DNA of 33,135 bases from an uncultured Clostridia bacterium (GTDB lineage: Bacteria; Bacillota; Clostridia; Oscillospirales; Oscillospiraceae), in NCBI GenBank assembly GCA_938049125.1, contig CALICR010000154.1, positions 1 to 33,135 on the forward strand. Reading direction: 5' to 3'. A program made the translations under genes and the position numbers. Below the pieces are notes generated by a model, which did no database searches, was not told where the DNA came from, and saw nothing but the letters and a program-made list of their open reading frames with translations. This document shows positions 26,487 to 33,103 of the stretch, piece after piece (position 1 is the first letter of the stretch; the number at the start of each line of letters is the position of its first letter).

Positions 26487-27203
26487 TCAGTCCGCAATCT
26501 TGCCGTCAATGGTGATGGTGACGACCTGCCAGGGGAGACGCTTGCCGCTGGCCTTCAGAGCTTCCTTGGCGGCGAATTCCAGGCCGCCGCAGCAGGGGAC
26601 CTCCATGCGGACCACAGTGACACTGCGGACGTCATTCCGCCGCAGAATCTCCGTCAGCTTCTCGCGGTAGTCCACGCTGTCCAGCTTCGGGCAGCCCACC
26701 AGGGTGATGCGGTCCCGGATGAATTCCTCGTGGAAGGCCGCGTAGGCGTAAGCCGTGCAGTCCGCGGCGATGAGCAGGTCCGCGCCGTTGAAATAGGGCG
26801 CTGTGGGCGGCACCAGCCGGATCTGTACCGGCCACTGACGGAGCTGGCTCTCCCGTCCCGTGCCCGCGGGCGCTTCGGCGCGGGACACCGGGGCGTCCCC
26901 GTGGGCAAAGAATTTGAGGGCGGAGCCGGGACATCCGTGGGGCTTCTCCGCAGCCGTCGGGGCCTTGGCCGCCTTGGCGGCCAGCACCGCTGCCTCGTCG
27001 TAGGCCGGGGCCTCGCGCTCCTCAAAGGTGATGGCCCCGGTGGGGCAGGCGGGCAGGCAGTCGCCCAGGCCGTCGCAGTAGTGCTCCCGGGCCAGGCGAG
27101 CCTTGCCGTTCACCATCTCAATGGCTCCCTCGTGGCAGGCGGCGGCGCAGGCGCCGCAGCCATTGCATTTTTCTTCGTCGATTCGGATGATCTTCCGGAT
27201 CAT
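26487..27203 (-). CDS. 4Fe-4S dicluster domain protein with a Cys-containing C-terminal domain
   Basis: 238 aa. Two ferredoxin motifs are present, CNGCGACAAAC and CDGLGDCLPACP. The C-terminal part has VGCPKLD and VPCCGG. Its ATG overlaps the upstream stop (ATGA). Confidence 0.8.
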   Translation of the reverse strand: MIRKIIRIDEEKCNGCGACAAACHEGAIEMVNGKARLAREHYCDGLGDCLPACPTGAITFEEREAPAYDEAAVLAAKAAKAPTAAEKPHGCPGSALKFFAHGDAPVSRAEAPAGTGRESQLRQWPVQIRLVPPTAPYFNGADLLIAADCTAYAYAAFHEEFIRDRITLVGCPKLDSVDYREKLTEILRRNDVRSVTVVRMEVPCCGGLEFAAKEALKASGKRLPWQVVTITIDGKIAD

Positions 27204-27487
27204 TTTTTGGTTCCTCCTTGCTTCGCTGCGCGCTCCTCGGCGGCGCGGGCCTTCTGGGCAGCGGCGATCTCCATCATGTGCTCGTACATCTCATCGCCGA
27301 CGCACTTGCGAGCGTATTTGCACCACTGCACGCAGCTCAGCGTGTCGTTGTAGACCGTAAAGCCGCAGTTTTCACAGGTGACTTCCGTGTCCGTGGAAAA
27401 GATCTCGATGGGTGCGCCGCACTGGGGGCATACTTTTTCGGAGATCGTCGGGGTCCGGGGCTTGCCCTGGCATCCGTCCATGATCAT
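27200..27487 (-). CDS. Small zinc-ribbon / Cys-rich protein
   Basis: 95 aa with AAAGGAGG upstream. The ribbon is CPQCG...CENCG, with additional Cys residues (SCVQWCKYARKC) and a basic Ala/Lys tail. Confidence 0.7.
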   Translation of the reverse strand: MIMDGCQGKPRTPTISEKVCPQCGAPIEIFSTDTEVTCENCGFTVYNDTLSCVQWCKYARKCVGDEMYEHMMEIAAAQKARAAEERAAKQGGTKK

Positions 27488-27632
27488 GGTTCATCGGCCT
27501 CCTTTTCGCCCGGCGGGCCGGGCTTCTCTGTTTTCTGCCTCTATCTTAGCAGACAGACCGGAAATTGTATGTTGGAAATCCAACAAACTGAGATTTTTTG
27601 AGGAAATTTGCCCCGGCGGAGGCCGCTTTGGA

Positions 27633-27661
27633 TTTACAGGGCGGCGGTTTCGGGGTATAAT
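27633..27661 (+). promoter_or_regulatory. Putative sigma-A promoter for the DUF218 gene
   Basis: TTTACA (27633-27638), a 17-nt spacer, then TATAAT (27656-27661). Confidence 0.55.
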
Positions 27662-27720
27662 GAGGACGCCGCCTCCGGGCGGCGGCGCACGATACTATTT
27701 ATATAAAAGGATCGGACCAC

Positions 27721-28482
27721 ATGGCAAAGCGCATTCTCCTTCTTCTCCTCTCTGCGGCCTCGCTTGCTTATTATCTCTGGATCGGCAGCAACAATGCATT
27801 CTCCATGTCGCTGCTCTCCGTCTGGCCTGCGCTCTCGGTGCTGTTTCTGGGGCTGGCGCTTCTGCCGAAGCGGGTGCGGCTGCCGCGCTGGCTGCGCTGG
27901 ACGCTGCTTGTATTTCTGCTGCCTGTGCTGATCGCAGCGGGCTGCATCCTCGGCGGCATGACGGCCCGGGGCGGGGAAGACTTCGACTGCCTCGTCGTGC
28001 TGGGTGCGGCGCTGAACGGACGGGAGCCGTCGGCAGCGCTGGAGGCTCGGCTCGAGACGGCGGCGGACTACCTCGACGCGCATCCGGAGACGGACGTCAT
28101 CGTCTCCGGCGGCCAGGGCGTCTCCGAGGTCGTCAGCGAGGCGGAATGCATGCGGGACTGGCTCCTGCGCCGCGGCATCGACCCAGGGCGCATCCGCATG
28201 GAGGACCGCTCCACGGATACGGCGGAGAACCTCCGTTACAGTCTCGCCATGCTGCCCGGCGAGGGTCTGCGCGTCGGCATCGTCACGAGCAATTTCCACG
28301 TGTTCCGCTCCCTCGGCATCGCCCGGGCCGAGGCCGGGGACCGGCTGACGCTCCGCGGGCTGGCAGCTCCCTTTTCACCGCGGCTGTTGCCCCATTTCCT
28401 GCTGCGGGAGCTGTGCGCCGTGGGCGCGGATACCTTGCGGGGCCGAATGTGCTGGTTTTTATGCATTCCTTTCAAAAGTTGA
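27721..28482 (+). CDS. DUF218 (YdcF/ElyC/SanA family) membrane-anchored protein
   Basis: 253 aa. N-terminal TM helices are followed by DCLVVLGAALNG, VIVSGGQG, SEAECMRDWL, EDRSTDTAENL and IVTSNFHVFRS, which are DUF218 hallmarks. Confidence 0.82.
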   Translation: MAKRILLLLLSAASLAYYLWIGSNNAFSMSLLSVWPALSVLFLGLALLPKRVRLPRWLRWTLLVFLLPVLIAAGCILGGMTARGGEDFDCLVVLGAALNGREPSAALEARLETAADYLDAHPETDVIVSGGQGVSEVVSEAECMRDWLLRRGIDPGRIRMEDRSTDTAENLRYSLAMLPGEGLRVGIVTSNFHVFRSLGIARAEAGDRLTLRGLAAPFSPRLLPHFLLRELCAVGADTLRGRMCWFLCIPFKS

Positions 28483-28504
28483 AGGAAAGACTATATTTTG
28501 TAGG

Positions 28505-28533
28505 TTGACACGGGACGAAAAAAAGGATATAGT
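28505..28533 (+). promoter_or_regulatory. Near-consensus sigma-A promoter driving the riboswitch leader
   Basis: TTGACA (28505-28510), a 17-nt spacer, then TATAGT (28528-28533). Confidence 0.7.
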
Positions 28534-28544
28534 AGAAACGAAAA

Positions 28545-28740
28545 ATCAAGAGCACCAAGTGCCGCCGGTGCTGCCTGAGGGCCGGCGGAGAATAGTGAAT
28601 CGGGTGAGATTCCCGAACGGTACCGCCACTGTGAGCGCGGAGACCGTACACAGGGCGAAAGCCGGTCATTGGGGAGCCATTCCCTGAGAAGGCCGTGTAC
28701 GGTCGGTGAGGCGCGAGTCAGGAGACCTGCTTGGAGGCAT
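28545..28740 (+). promoter_or_regulatory. Cobalamin (B12) riboswitch aptamer
   Basis: The conserved core is AATAGTGAATCGGGTGAGATTCCCGAACGGTACCGCCACTGTGAGCG (GCCACTG at 28624-28630). The B12 box AGTCAGGAGACCTGC lies at 28716-28730. A candidate P1 pairs CCAAG (28555-28559) with CTTGG (28730-34). A promoter lies upstream and a terminator downstream. Confidence 0.85.
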
Positions 28741-28796
28741 TTTCCCCTGCGCGCTTTGCGAGTTATGAGGTGCGTGGTCGATTTTGTGACGCAGAA

Positions 28797-28841
28797 AAAC
28801 GGCTGCGGCAACGATGGTTGCCGCAGCCGCTTTTGATTTTT
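28797..28841 (+). terminator. Rho-independent terminator, the likely expression platform of the B12 riboswitch
   Basis: 12-bp stem GGCTGCGGCAAC (28801-28812) / GTTGCCGCAGCC (28817-28828) with loop GATG, then GCTTTTGATTTTT. Confidence 0.85.
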
Positions 28842-28979
28842 CAGTGAATACGGGCGCGGAACTTCCCCCATTCCCGCCCGCACGTGCGGTGGGGCCGGCG
28901 GTACCGGTCCCCCTGAGATGCCCGGCGTCCCGCTTTCCCCCAGCGAGCGCCGGGCACAGAACCGAAACAGGTGAATGCG

Positions 28980-29129
28980 ATGCAGCAGAACATGGATATC
29001 TCCCCCCAGGAGGCAAAGCTGATCCGGCTCATCCGCTCGATGACGTCCGGAGAGCTCCTGATCATTGTAAAAGATAATCGACCGATCCGTGTGGAACAGA
29101 TCGAACGGGGCATCCCGCTTTCAACGTGA
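28980..29129 (+). CDS. YezD/DUF2292-like small protein (49 aa), not in the supplied ORF track
   Basis: The ATG at 28980 has AGGTGA 6 nt upstream, and the TGA is at 29127-29129. It translates to MQQNMDISPQEAKLIRLIRSMTSGELLIIVKDNRPIRVEQIERGIPLST. The pattern x-G-x-hydrophobic-IIV-x-D-x-x-P/V-x-x-V/I-E resembles the YezD family (..YGSV.I.VQDGKVVQIE..EK.R). Confidence 0.55.
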   Translation: MQQNMDISPQEAKLIRLIRSMTSGELLIIVKDNRPIRVEQIERGIPLST

Positions 29130-29178
29130 GTACCCCGGATTGTGCAGCAGGGACCGACGGAAGAACCGAGGCCCGGGA

Positions 29179-29233
29179 GGCGGAGGCACAGCAGTGCTCC
29201 GCCTATCGGGCGTTTTTTCAATAAGCGCCCGAT
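29179..29233 (+). terminator. Two tandem hairpins, a possible weak terminator or processing structure
   Basis: The first hairpin pairs GGCGGAG (29179-85) with CTCCGCC (29197-203). The second pairs ATCGGGCG (29205-12) with CGCCCGAT (29226-33) and has a T-rich loop. No clean T-tract follows either stem. Confidence 0.3.
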
Positions 29234-29299
29234 TTAATTCTGTTCTGCGCCTCTGCGGCGTTTGAGATAGCAAAGAAAATGGAGAAATGGAGGAAAACC

Positions 29300-32200
29300 A
29301 TGAAGCACAAAAATTTGACGCGGCTGCTTTCGCTGCTGCTGACGCTGGTGCTCCTTTGTTCCGTCTGCCTCCCGGCCTATGCGGCCGGACTGGAAGCAGT
29401 GGGCGAAGCCCAAATGACGGATTCGGCTGCCACGGAGGACCTGGCCGGGACGGAACCGGCTGATACGGAAGCGGCTGATACGGAAGCGGCTGATACGGAA
29501 GCGGCTGATACGGAAGCGGCTGATACGGAACCGGCTGATACGGAACCGGAGGAGGAGCTGCAGAATACCGCAGTTCCGCAGGCGGCATGCACCGTCTCGG
29601 TACTGGAATCTGCCCCCACGACGGCAGAGACGACGACCGGCAGCATTTACACGCTCGATCTCTCGACGGTCTTTACGGACAGCGAAGGGCACACCCTCAG
29701 CTATACGCTGAGCGGCGGCGACTTCGGTCAGCAGACCAAGATCAAGGACGGCGTGCTCTATTTCTCCGTCGGCGCGGCGGGCGACTATACGCCGACCATC
29801 ACTGCGACCTGCGAAAGCGGCGCGACGGCGGCCTATACGCCGACCATCACGGTCAAGGCTGTGAGCGAGGGAAGCCAGGAGCAGTACGGCTACGACGAAA
29901 CACCGGCAAGCTCCGTCACGGTCTATGTGACGGTCAACAGCGACGGCATTCCCATCCGCGGCAACGACGAGAAGCAGACCATCCTTTCCCATCTCAAGGT
30001 CACGGTGCCCTACTTTGACCTGGCGGATTACGGTCTCGGCGATTTCCATCGGTATCACACGGAGAACGGTCAGGGCTCCTATGTGGATGACGTGATCGTG
30101 GAGCGGCCCACGGCGCTGCACCTCTACATCTACCTGCTGGAGCACTACTACATGGGCCTTCCGGACAGCGCCTGCTGCAAGGGCACGTCCGGTGTGCTGG
30201 ACTACGCGACCGAGACGGACGTCTACGACATGAACGGCGACCCTGCCTTCACCGGAACGAACAAGGCGCTGAACATCACCGGCTCCGCCACCTCTCTGTA
30301 TATGCAGCAGTTCTGGGGTCATGACGAAAACCTCATGTACTACCGCAACCATGTCTACCCGCTTATGTCGGCGGGCTGGGGCAGCACGGCGGACTACATC
30401 CTCCTCTCGGATGATGACACCATCGATGTGGCGATGTTCTCCAACTGGAACTTCTGGAGCGACGGCGGCGCATTCGCCCGCTTCGACAAGGACGCCTACC
30501 AGGGACGCGCCGGCGCAGCGCTGGCAGTCCAGACGCTGAAGTATGACACCAGATCCGTTGCGGACGGCGGCACCGAGAGCTTCACGCCGATCTCCGGTCT
30601 GAAGGTCGGTCTCTACGATGCAAACTGGAAGCTGCTTCAGGAGCTGTCCAGCGACAACGGCAGCTACACCGTTACGCTTCCGGAGACGGCGGGCGAGTAT
30701 TACCTCCTCGGCATCGACCCGAACCACGGCACCATGGATGCGCGCTTCGCCTCCGCGACCGCACGTGTCACGGTTCTCGGCGACGAGAATCCGGATCCCT
30801 TCGCGGACACCCTCTTCACCAGCGTGAACTATGCGGACAACAGCGGCAGCACCGCAGTCCTCGACGATTTCACGGCGCTGACCGGCGGCATCAGCGACAC
30901 GGACGGCCTGGGCAACGAATATAAGAACCTGCCCGCCTACACCTTCAAGATCCCGCAGTCCCTGATCGGCAATACGGTCAGCTTCGTCTTCCCGGCGGAG
31001 CAGGGACTTCAGCCCTACGGCATGAGCTGGTCGAAGGGCGATGGCTTCGGCTATGACGCGCCGAACCTCACGCTCAAAACGAATGACGACGGCACGCAGA
31101 CGCTCTCCTTCGACATCACTGAGGACTTCGTCGGCACCGGCAAGTATATCGTCTTTGAGAACGACGAGTTCAAGGGCTTCCTCGGCGTCACCTTTGAGCT
31201 GGGCGGCGCGACCGGCGCAGTCGCCGTCACCGGCGTCAGCCTCGACCAGACCGCGCTGAATGTTCCGCTCGGCACAGCGCCGCAGCTGACCGCAACGGTC
31301 ATGCCAGAGAACGCCACCAACAAGGATGTCGCGTGGAGCAGCAGCAACAAGACCGTTGCGACGGTCTCCGAGAGCGGCGTCATCACTCCGGTGAGCGAGG
31401 GCGCCACGATCATCACCGTCACCACCATGGACGGCAGCTACACGGCGACCTGCCGCGTCACGGTCGTGGACGACCGCACGCCGAACCTGAGCGCGGACGG
31501 CTACTATGAGATCACCTCCGCACAGCAGCTCAAGTGGTTTGCCGACGCGGTCAACAGCGACAAGAGCAGCGCAAACGCGCGGCTGATGAACGACATCGAC
31601 CTGTCCGAGGTGTGCAGCGCGGAGAACGGCTCCTGGGAGCCGATCGGCACCGCAATGAAGTATATTCAGTACTCCGGCACCTTCGACGGGCAGGGACATA
31701 CGATCAGCAACCTCTATATCAATGAGAAGCTGAGCAACACCGCCAACGGCGAGACCAATGACCGCGCCCTCTTCGGCAGGGTCGAGGGCGGCACGATCAA
31801 GAACGTGACCGTGACCGGCTCCGTGACGACCAACGCGCGCTATGCGTCCGGTCTTGTGGGCTATGCCATAAAGGCCACCATTGAAAACTGCCATACAAAC
31901 GTCGCAGTGACCGGAACGGGCACCTGGGGCGCGACCGGCATCATCGGCTTCGCAGCGGCGGGCGTGACCATCCGGAACTGCTCCAACAGCGGCCCCATCC
32001 ACGGTGCGGGCACCTATGTTGCGGGCGTCGTCGGCAGCGGCTACGAGATTACGGTGGACGGCTGCTACAATGACGGCGAGATCGTCTGCAACGATTTCTA
32101 CGGCGAGGGCGCAGTCGGCGGCGTCATTGGCTACCTCAGCTCCCCCAAAGCGAAGATCAGCAATTGCTACAACCTCGGCACCGTGACCACGGATGACTCG

Positions 32201-33103
32201 AATTACCGGGTCGGCGGCGTGGTCGGCATGTTCTACTTCTACTCCGGCGGCACGGCGCAGATCTCCTCCTGCTACAATGCGGGCATGATCAACAGCAAGA
32301 GCAGCAAGGCAGGCTCCCTCGCGGGCAGCGTGGAGGACAGAAACGGCAAGCTCACGGGTCAGACGGCGGAGAACTGCTTCTACCTCCTCGGCACCTGCAC
32401 GTCGGACTTCTTCGGACTTTCGTCCGTGACGGAGGCGTACCTCCGCAGCGCGGCTGCGACTGCGCAGCTCAACGGGGAATCCGGCAGCGCCTACAAGCGC
32501 GGCACCGCGCACCCCATCCTGAGCTGGCAGCCGGACGAGCCCGTTGACACCACCCCGGAGAAGAACGAGCAGGGCTTCTATCAGCTTACCTCTGCGGACG
32601 ATCTCCTCTGGTTTGCGGACAAGGTCAACAACGGCGGACTGAACGCCATCGACGCCGTTCTGATGAACGACATCGACCTCAGCTCCGTGGAGAACTGGAC
32701 GCCCATCGGCAGCTCCGATACGAAGTACCTCGGCACCTTTGACGGACAGGGCCATGCCATCACCGGTCTGACGATCCAGCAGGGCGACGTGTCGGCGACC
32801 CTCACGCTTGGCCTCTTCGGCTATGCCGGCAGCGGCGCGGCACTCAAGAACTTCACGCTGGACGGCGGCGTGACCCTTACCACCTCGCAGCAGATCGCGG
32901 GCGCAGCCGGCGGCATCGGCTCGGTGGTCGGGCATGCCAACGGCGCGACCATCACGGACGTGCAGAGCAGCGTTTCCGTCACGGTCAGCGCACCCTCGAC
33001 CAAGAACGTGGGCTATGTGGGCGGACTCGCCGGCATGACCACGAAAGCAACGCTGCTGCGCTGCGGCACCTCCGGCACGCTGACGCTTACCCTGACGGGC
33101 AGC
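29300..33103 (+). CDS. Large secreted cell-surface protein, 5' complete and 3' truncated (Big_2 Ig-like domain plus two beta-helix/GLUG-like modules)
   Basis: The ATG at 29300 has GGAGG 6 nt upstream. The frame stays open for 1268 codons up to the adapter junction; it is missing from the track because it has no stop.
- Signal peptide: MKHKNLTRLLSLLLTLVLLCSVCLPAYA/AG.
- Tandem repeats: (A/P)ADTE.
- Big_2-like domain: ~31225-31468 (VTGVSLDQTALNVPLGTAPQLTATVMPENATNKDVAWSSSNKTVATVSESGVITPVSEGATIITVTT).
- Two modules begin Y(Y/F)xxTSAxxLxWFAxxVN...NDIDLS...GTFDGQGHxIxxL, as seen in IgA-protease/GLUG-type surface proteins. Confidence 0.85.
29456..29545 (+). repeat. Six tandem copies of a 15-bp unit (SCGGCTGATACGGAA) inside the surface-protein gene
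   Basis: The units run 29456-70, 29471-85, 29486-500, 29501-15, 29516-30 and 29531-45. They are identical except for the first base (C/G). In frame they encode PADTE-(AADTE)x4-PADTE. Confidence 0.95.

Follow-up and report, generated by a model that had tools for sequence, protein, structure and literature searches.

A YezD/DUF2292-like gene between a cobalamin riboswitch and a conserved hairpin-terminator in an Oscillospiraceae genome: a candidate two-step termination switch

The stretch of DNA analyzed here (the window, 33,135 nucleotides in full; contig CALICR010000154.1, forward strand) comes from an uncultured Clostridia bacterium of the family Oscillospiraceae and carries, toward its 3′ end, a cobalamin (B12) riboswitch, a gene for a 49-residue YezD/DUF2292-like protein and the 5′ part of a gene for a giant secreted protein. 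Two intrinsic terminators stand in series in this region: the first is coupled to the B12 aptamer, and the second competes with a conserved RNA hairpin that travels with DUF2292 genes. On a balance of evidence that tips modestly in its favor, we propose that the region is one transcription unit with two serial termination checkpoints, the second of which would be relieved by the YezD-like protein. A broader proposal, which we regard as evenly poised between right and wrong, is that DUF2292/YezD proteins are widespread and so far undescribed RNA-binding antiterminators of about 50 residues, each with a cognate hairpin-terminator, and that here one of them has been placed under a B12 riboswitch and acts in cis and in trans to open several operons for giant, corrinoid-capturing surface proteins.

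In the proposed cascade, plentiful B12 would lead the riboswitch to let the terminator at 28,800–28,841 form, and nothing downstream would be made. Under B12 scarcity polymerase would read on, and the 49-residue protein would be translated. Behind its stop codon a weak hairpin (29,151–29,174) would then compete with a strong terminator reaching to 29,218. The YezD-like protein is predicted to bind and stabilize this hairpin, blocking the terminator and allowing transcription into the promoter-less gene at 29,300, and it may also act in trans on other hairpin-terminator leaders, such as that at C82 in the same genome. The cascade would delay or coordinate expression of very large surface proteins under sustained B12 scarcity. 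RNA binding by the small protein, antitermination as its outcome and B12 capture by the surface protein are the steps of this scheme that we infer.

The Rfam cobalamin riboswitch model RF00174 (clan CL00101; gathering score 31.5 bits) matches 28,541–28,748 (+) with 90.7 bits (E = 2e-21) over model positions 1–189 of 189, and with 95.2 bits in the genome search. Both the GCCACTG core and the B12 box (AGTCAGGAGACCTGC) lie within this alignment, and their RNA forms, GCCACUG and AGUCAGGAGACCUGC, line up with the model consensus. The sigma-70-type promoter ahead of it (TTGACA-17-TATAGT, 28,505–28,533, +) agrees at 11 of 12 positions and has been retained in G003, a genome of the same genus (G000 denotes the genome of the window, other G numbers sampled genomes, mostly metagenome-assembled, and L numbers loci). 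A promoter-site scan of 28,300–29,400 finds this site and no other sigma-70-like one, with shuffled sequences averaging 0.2. The first intrinsic terminator (28,800–28,841, +), the expression platform, starts 52 nucleotides past the aptamer; its stem (28,800–28,829) has 13 pairs, 10 of them G-C, and is followed by the U-run CTTTTGATTTTT. It also forms in the computed fold and is kept in G003, including its 5′ arm CAGAAAAACGGCTGCGGC. A preliminary description of the window had named this promoter, a canonical B12 aptamer and a strong terminator as platform, and all three are confirmed. The aptamer with its platform is, by these criteria of sequence and fold, a genuine RF00174 member with a predicted corrinoid response. 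Like other RF00174 riboswitches it has a full-length aptamer, a B12 box and a terminator platform, but it differs from them in that the first gene it controls encodes a regulator-like mini-protein rather than a transporter or enzyme, and in that a second, distinct termination switch follows in series. The only other cobalamin riboswitch of G000 (C146:4638–4848, −; locus L002; 36.6 bits) precedes the gene for a 180-residue multi-pass membrane protein, possibly an S-component of an energy-coupling factor (ECF) transporter.

The small gene (28,980–29,129, +) runs from an ATG at 28,980 to a TGA at 29,127–29,129, with the sequence AGGTGA (28,969–28,974) 5 nucleotides ahead of the ATG, and its product is MQQNMDISPQEAKLIRLIRSMTSGELLIIVKDNRPIRVEQIERGIPLST. 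A phmmer search of 1.84 billion representative sequences with this protein returned 44 relatives at E ≤ 1e-3, mostly of 49–60 residues and 40–59% identical, and a profile search returned 409 proteins, many with a precomputed PF10055 (Pfam DUF2292) match; a word-indexed protein search with the single sequence returned two near-identical sequences only, and an NCBIfam search gave no match. The relatives align without internal gaps, with R19, G24 and P35 invariant, and follow the pattern L-x-x-x-E-x-x-L-I-x-L-I-R-x-x-x-x-G-E-hydrophobic strand-P-I-R-x-E-E-I. PF10055 is matched at E ≤ 0.01 by 18 of 26 of them (best 1.5e-6), and relatives 52% identical to the window protein carry the NCBI name "DUF2292 domain-containing protein". 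Because of this gapless conservation, these domain matches and these names, the open reading frame (ORF) can be assigned as a real, conserved gene of a DUF2292 subfamily, the window protein itself lying below the Pfam line. Its own DUF2292 match is significant by E value (0.0016) but at 18.4 bits, or 17.6 bits in the genome search, falls short of the curated cut-off of 22 bits. In G003 and G011 the orthologs that follow riboswitches share 49% and 47% identity with it, and that of G011 reaches 23.2 bits, above the cut-off, which relatives in G542, G453, G462 and G464 also exceed. The ORF had been called YezD/DUF2292-like from the window alone, with loss of conservation named as a finding that would speak against it; the call holds, and the ORF is conserved. 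In size and in its helix-then-G-[ED]-hydrophobic-strand pattern the protein is like YezD/DUF2292 members, and it differs from them in its score and in the ties of its subfamily to B12 riboswitches and surface proteins. The predicted structure is of moderate confidence (predicted local distance difference test, pLDDT, 73) and has one helix, at residues 9–20. One much larger protein, P0003 (2096 residues), has nine separate stretches that match residues 5–31 of the small protein (E 1.5e-8), which may be a repeat or coiled-coil artefact.

The family was looked for in an unbiased sample of 60 relatives, 400 order-level genomes and 400 class-level ones, and was found at 16 loci in 15 genomes. It is rare, with 5 of 401 order genomes and 9 of 399 class genomes positive when G000 is counted in both. 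At 11 of the 16 loci a cobalamin-clan riboswitch lies directly upstream on the same strand, ten of them RF00174 (47.6–130.3 bits) and one RF01482; since these loci were collected in an unbiased way, we place the YezD-like gene in the B12 regulon as judged from gene order. The recurrence that the preliminary description had proposed to look for by genome comparison is thus present. The five loci without a riboswitch comprise three prophage-like ones, one in G371 and a paralog in G000 on the short contig C216. A metagenomic subfamily of 53 residues (P0193) also follows RF00174, with a match just at threshold (31.9 bits). The view that the YezD family is not an established member of the B12 regulon agrees with a full-text literature search, which gave no paper joining YezD/DUF2292 with B12, riboswitches or DUF4430; nor is the arrangement of B12 riboswitch and YezD mentioned in the 2007 metagenome riboswitch survey. 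Mentions of the family are few: DUF2292 is named in 2 papers, and of 11 full-text hits for yezD most are B. subtilis papers in which the name occurs once or twice.

The functionally telling element, which the preliminary description passed over, is the conserved hairpin and terminator after the ORF. The hairpin (29,151–29,174, +; GGAC-CGA-CGG-AAGAA-CCG-AG-GCCC) comprises two helices and is a candidate antiterminator and protein-binding site by its conservation and covariation. A hairpin and terminator occur downstream of the small gene at 15 of the 16 loci, and share a layout of an outer 4-bp stem, YGA, an inner 3–4-bp stem, an A-rich loop (AAAA or AAGAA), AG and the closing outer stem, which runs directly into the intrinsic terminator. 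The unpaired bases (UGA or CGA, AG and the A-rich loop) are conserved. Both helices covary: 92.9% and 97.6% of cells are paired, against 17–48% in slid controls, with compensatory changes at 5 of 8 and 3 of 7 pairs, respectively. The element has been kept between the window and G003 while its flanks have diverged. Covariance models R1, R2 and R3 were built from locus copies; R1 was too narrow and missed the window type of hairpin, and the window copy, which belongs to the training set of the other two, scores 37.1 bits with R2 and 35.3 bits with R3. No Rfam family exceeds its gathering score over the hairpin-terminator. The attenuator survey of Naville and Gautheret from 2010 reportedly includes a shared element before a sulfonate ATP-binding cassette (ABC) operon, at most a possible counterpart of this hairpin.

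The second intrinsic terminator (29,159–29,219, +) overlaps the hairpin. It has the core GCCCGG...UCGGGC, an inner hairpin at 29,178–29,204 and a U-run at 29,213–29,218, and it is the minimum-energy fold of 29,145–29,219 (−36.2 kcal/mol, z −3.7). The hairpin is unpaired in that fold, so the two structures are mutually exclusive alternatives, of which the hairpin is the weaker. The same overlapping design is found at L005, L008, L013–L018 and L043. Because the terminator is by far the more stable fold, a factor would be needed for read-through rather than for stopping, and the antitermination direction is predicted from just this energetic relation and the missing promoter: no promoter-like site lies between the second terminator and the gene at 29,300. 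A YezD-like protein that acted on the same RNA in the opposite sense, promoting termination and limiting expression by negative feedback, seems to us distinctly improbable. PyrR- and TRAP-type proteins promote termination and offer a precedent, and the direction of an effect is not readable from sequence; against this, the structure that is conserved and covaries is the hairpin that excludes the terminator, the terminator is already much more stable without help, and the downstream genes lack a separate promoter-like site.

The position of the element behind a short ORF also recalls leader peptides, in which the position of the ribosome decides between alternative RNA structures. If such translation-coupled attenuation operated in cis, the ribosome on the small ORF would choose between hairpin and terminator, and the peptide itself would be unimportant. 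The stop codon does lie 3–21 nucleotides from the hairpin at several loci, but the distance spans 3 to more than 250 nucleotides across loci, conservation of the amino-acid sequence is strong from end to end (40–57% identity), and orphan elements occur with no small ORF upstream; we hold this explanation to be highly improbable.

Copies of the element beyond those used for training link it further to DUF2292. All model matches of at least 32 bits are in genomes that have the gene; the models are small, and scores under about 27–29 bits are unreliable. Among copies outside the training set, those of G021 and G554 stand immediately after the stop codon of a canonical DUF2292 gene (gene scores 49.2 and 59.3 bits, respectively), and in G527 a distance of 1.3 kb separates the DUF2292 gene from the hairpin downstream of it. 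The G021 pair precedes an ABC transporter operon with genes for a lipoprotein, an ATPase and a membrane protein. In a class sample of 150 genomes, the sole R3 match at E ≤ 0.01 outside DUF2292-positive genomes was inside mraY. The in-gene matches that we inspected, at about 29 bits or less, were rejected as false; they lie in GPR-like, DnaJ-like, NusA and MraY coding regions.

In G003 (C11), G766, G554 and G000 (C82), all of which carry yezD elsewhere, hairpin-terminators also occur as orphans, in leaders that have no such gene next to them. The most telling orphan is that of G003:C11, which directly follows a B12 riboswitch of 94.7 bits and precedes the gene for a 677-residue homolog of the window surface-protein module, with no yezD between. 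The copy in G000 (C82:350–385, −; L033) consists of the hairpin GGGC-AGT-CGG-AAGAA-CCG-AT-GCCC and a terminator, again with no YezD gene beside it; it lies about 100 nucleotides ahead of a signal-peptide gene cut by the contig end, with a tRNA-like stretch upstream, and by its sequence is a candidate trans target.

These distributions bear on a further explanation, that the hairpin-terminator is run by a metabolite, a different protein or some general factor, and that the small protein is merely co-transcribed and has some other cytoplasmic job in nutrient scavenging. We consider this unlikely, though it deserves more weight than the two alternatives above. Its best support is G032, a genome 96% complete with a riboswitch, a 106-residue ORF, the hairpin-terminator and secreted proteins, in which no YezD-like gene was detectable; and the 49-residue protein has no recognizable RNA-binding fold. 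A hairpin of 24 nucleotides is, however, very small for a ligand aptamer, and the element directly adjoins DUF2292 genes whether the setting is B12-related, sulfur-transporter or prophage-like, which speaks for a partner shared by these contexts. The orphan elements, too, are in genomes that encode the protein in every case but G032. The ORF family of that cassette, of 106–142 residues, recurs in L040 (G032:C3), L008/L024 (G232) and L043, the last with a Pfam HNH_repeat match.

Beyond G032, several observations weigh against antitermination by the YezD-like protein. A PDB sequence search and a Foldseek search with the 49-residue model gave no similar solved structure and no mark of RNA binding, and the protein is weakly basic, with 7 basic and 6 acidic residues. 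The window hairpin has CGA rather than UGA and, in one register, only 3 of the 4 outer pairs. The C82 copy has different internal-loop bases and scores 21.2 bits with R2 and 31.3 bits with R3, and the hairpin beside the C216 paralog is divergent, with no riboswitch within its 3.8-kb contig. Finally, a second checkpoint in cis would look redundant behind a riboswitch, unless the protein senses a second signal.

The C216 paralog (C216:2035–2184, −; L006/L012/L031) is 32% identical to the window protein, scores 15.2 bits against DUF2292 and is flanked by two genes for secreted proteins. Behind it come the variant hairpin GGAC-AACA-AGG-AAAAA-CCT-CT-GTCC and a terminator-like stem, and paralog and hairpin are possibly a second pair of protein and RNA specificity. 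A YezD-like subgroup (…LHEKEKRLLEFIRRLGYGE…) is found in prophage-like rows of genes with no riboswitch at L018, L019 and L020 (in G687, G695 and G681, respectively), where one or a few small ORFs separate the gene from the same hairpin-terminator downstream, directly behind which more genes follow.

The gene behind the second terminator (29,300–33,103, +; GGAGG at 29,289–29,293) encodes a giant secreted protein with the signal peptide MKHKNLTRLLSLLLTLVLLC; only its 5′ part is present, as it is cut by the contig end. Pfam matches at E ≤ 0.01 in this protein are to Big_2 and GLUG only, and DUF4430 was not found in it by Pfam. Residues 102–501 are 59% identical to the product of the second gene of the G003 operon, and residues 207–443 recur in the G425 and G232 operons and at G003:C11, so that, besides the window, four riboswitch-led loci (two from G003 and one each from G425 and G232) encode the N-terminal module of about 400 residues. 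This module has more than 650 relatives, many of them dockerin-tagged Oscillospiraceae proteins. A confident AlphaFold2 model of residues 101–505 (pLDDT 85) shows beta-rich domains, and Foldseek with the 405-residue module returned only generic chains of immunoglobulin (Ig) domains, with template modeling (TM) scores near 0.2. At all non-phage loci the next genes encode signal-peptide proteins, often of 1100–2200 residues. The proteins at the same operon position in L023, L027 and L028 combine DUF4430, a transcobalamin-like domain, with SLH domains, and that of L028 also has an alpha/alpha-toroid; the gene for this toroid-bearing protein is followed by that for a DUF4430 membrane protein and by two putative ECF-type genes, which we read from their sequence as a T-component and an ATPase, Pfam giving no match for one that was scanned. 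The window surface protein can thus be placed, by homology and gene order, among the products of B12-riboswitch operons.

Surface capture of corrinoids invites comparison. BtuG and BtuH of Bacteroides and the predicted transcobalamin-like DUF4430/SLBB proteins of Gram-positive bacteria are likewise secreted or wall-anchored and controlled by B12 riboswitches, and the relatives at the operon position of the window protein carry DUF4430, SLH and an alpha/alpha-toroid beside ECF-type genes; the window protein itself differs in having no Pfam DUF4430 and a module with generic Ig-chain matches only. The preliminary description had stated that no transporter, cob/cbi, metE or nrd gene follows the riboswitch. 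As worded this does not stand: the transcription unit is predicted to continue past the second terminator into the secreted-protein gene, whose module is shared with other riboswitch-led loci; further relatives have DUF4430/SLH proteins and putative ECF-type genes at this position.

The same description had envisaged a stand-alone riboswitch, with the mini-protein as sole product, a functional spacer and nothing B12-related downstream, a picture to which we now give very little credence. It is true that a terminator comes after the ORF and that the window downstream protein has no Pfam DUF4430. The terminator is part of a conserved switch, however; the downstream secreted proteins are conserved partners across loci, several with DUF4430 or SLH, and modules homologous to the window protein lie in other riboswitch-led operons. 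The spacer, for its part, is not conserved even within the genus. This GC-rich 5′ untranslated stretch of about 135 nucleotides (28,842–28,968, +; 70% GC) does contain the palindrome CCGCACGTGCGG and the long hairpin GCCCGGCG/CGCCGGGC that had been described, but as a conserved structured element it fails: the G003 spacer is about 40 nucleotides shorter and has neither. Its fold is mildly better than that of shuffled sequences (z −2.4; 3 of 200 shuffles equal it), it is single-copy in the genome, and no Rfam family reaches its gathering score there. Since it is unconserved in the genus, unrepeated and folds only slightly better than shuffles, we treat it as an ordinary GC-rich 5′ untranslated region and have rejected it as a functional element. 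The sub-threshold Rfam matches ar7 and ncS01 were set aside as chance, driven by the terminator hairpins.

The proposed two-checkpoint switch has its closest analog in operon logic in the hut operon of Bacillus subtilis, where the gene for the small regulator HutP is followed by an intrinsic terminator and the structural genes, and HutP is thought to act on the terminator RNA so as to permit read-through. The window has the same order of regulator gene, terminator and structural gene, with riboswitch gating in addition, but its RNA site is a two-helix hairpin rather than a set of UAG repeats. The 49-residue protein has no homology to HutP: Pfam and PDB searches gave only the weak DUF2292 match, with no relation in sequence or fold. 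As with the ribonucleic antiterminator (RAT) hairpins of BglG, LicT and SacY and with the ANTAR systems, a weak hairpin with specific unpaired bases overlies a terminator at its 5′ arm and would prevail only with the help of a protein; here, by contrast, the protein has 49 residues and neither CAT/PRD nor ANTAR domains, and the hairpin differs in sequence and shape.

If the proposal is correct, DUF2292/YezD, a small protein family encoded in B12, sulfur-transport and prophage-like settings, would have a function assigned to it, and a new protein-RNA antitermination pair would join the few known from HutP, BglG/LicT, ANTAR, PyrR and TRAP. The target of the riboswitch would then be a regulator that acts in trans, not a transporter or enzyme, and the effective B12 regulon would therefore be wider, with operons that have only the hairpin-terminator also responding to B12. 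The proposal bears on the control of costly surface machinery, thought to capture corrinoids, in Gram-positive gut Clostridia (Oscillospiraceae), and the 49-residue protein with its 24-nucleotide hairpin could provide compact parts for synthetic gene control.

Some minor features of the window complete the description. The upstream neighbors (26,487–28,482) encode a 4Fe-4S dicluster protein (−), a 95-residue zinc-ribbon protein (−) and a DUF218 protein (+, ending at 28,482), with no apparent relation to the riboswitch unit. At its N-terminus the surface protein contains a tandem pentapeptide repeat, AADTE/PADTE, in about 6 copies (29,440–29,520), with a 15-nucleotide repeat in the DNA. The contig end (33,104–33,135, AGATCGGAAGAGCACACGTCTGAACTCCAGTC) is an Illumina TruSeq adapter, so that the terminal ...RSEEHTSELQ of the surface-protein ORF is an artefact of the assembly.

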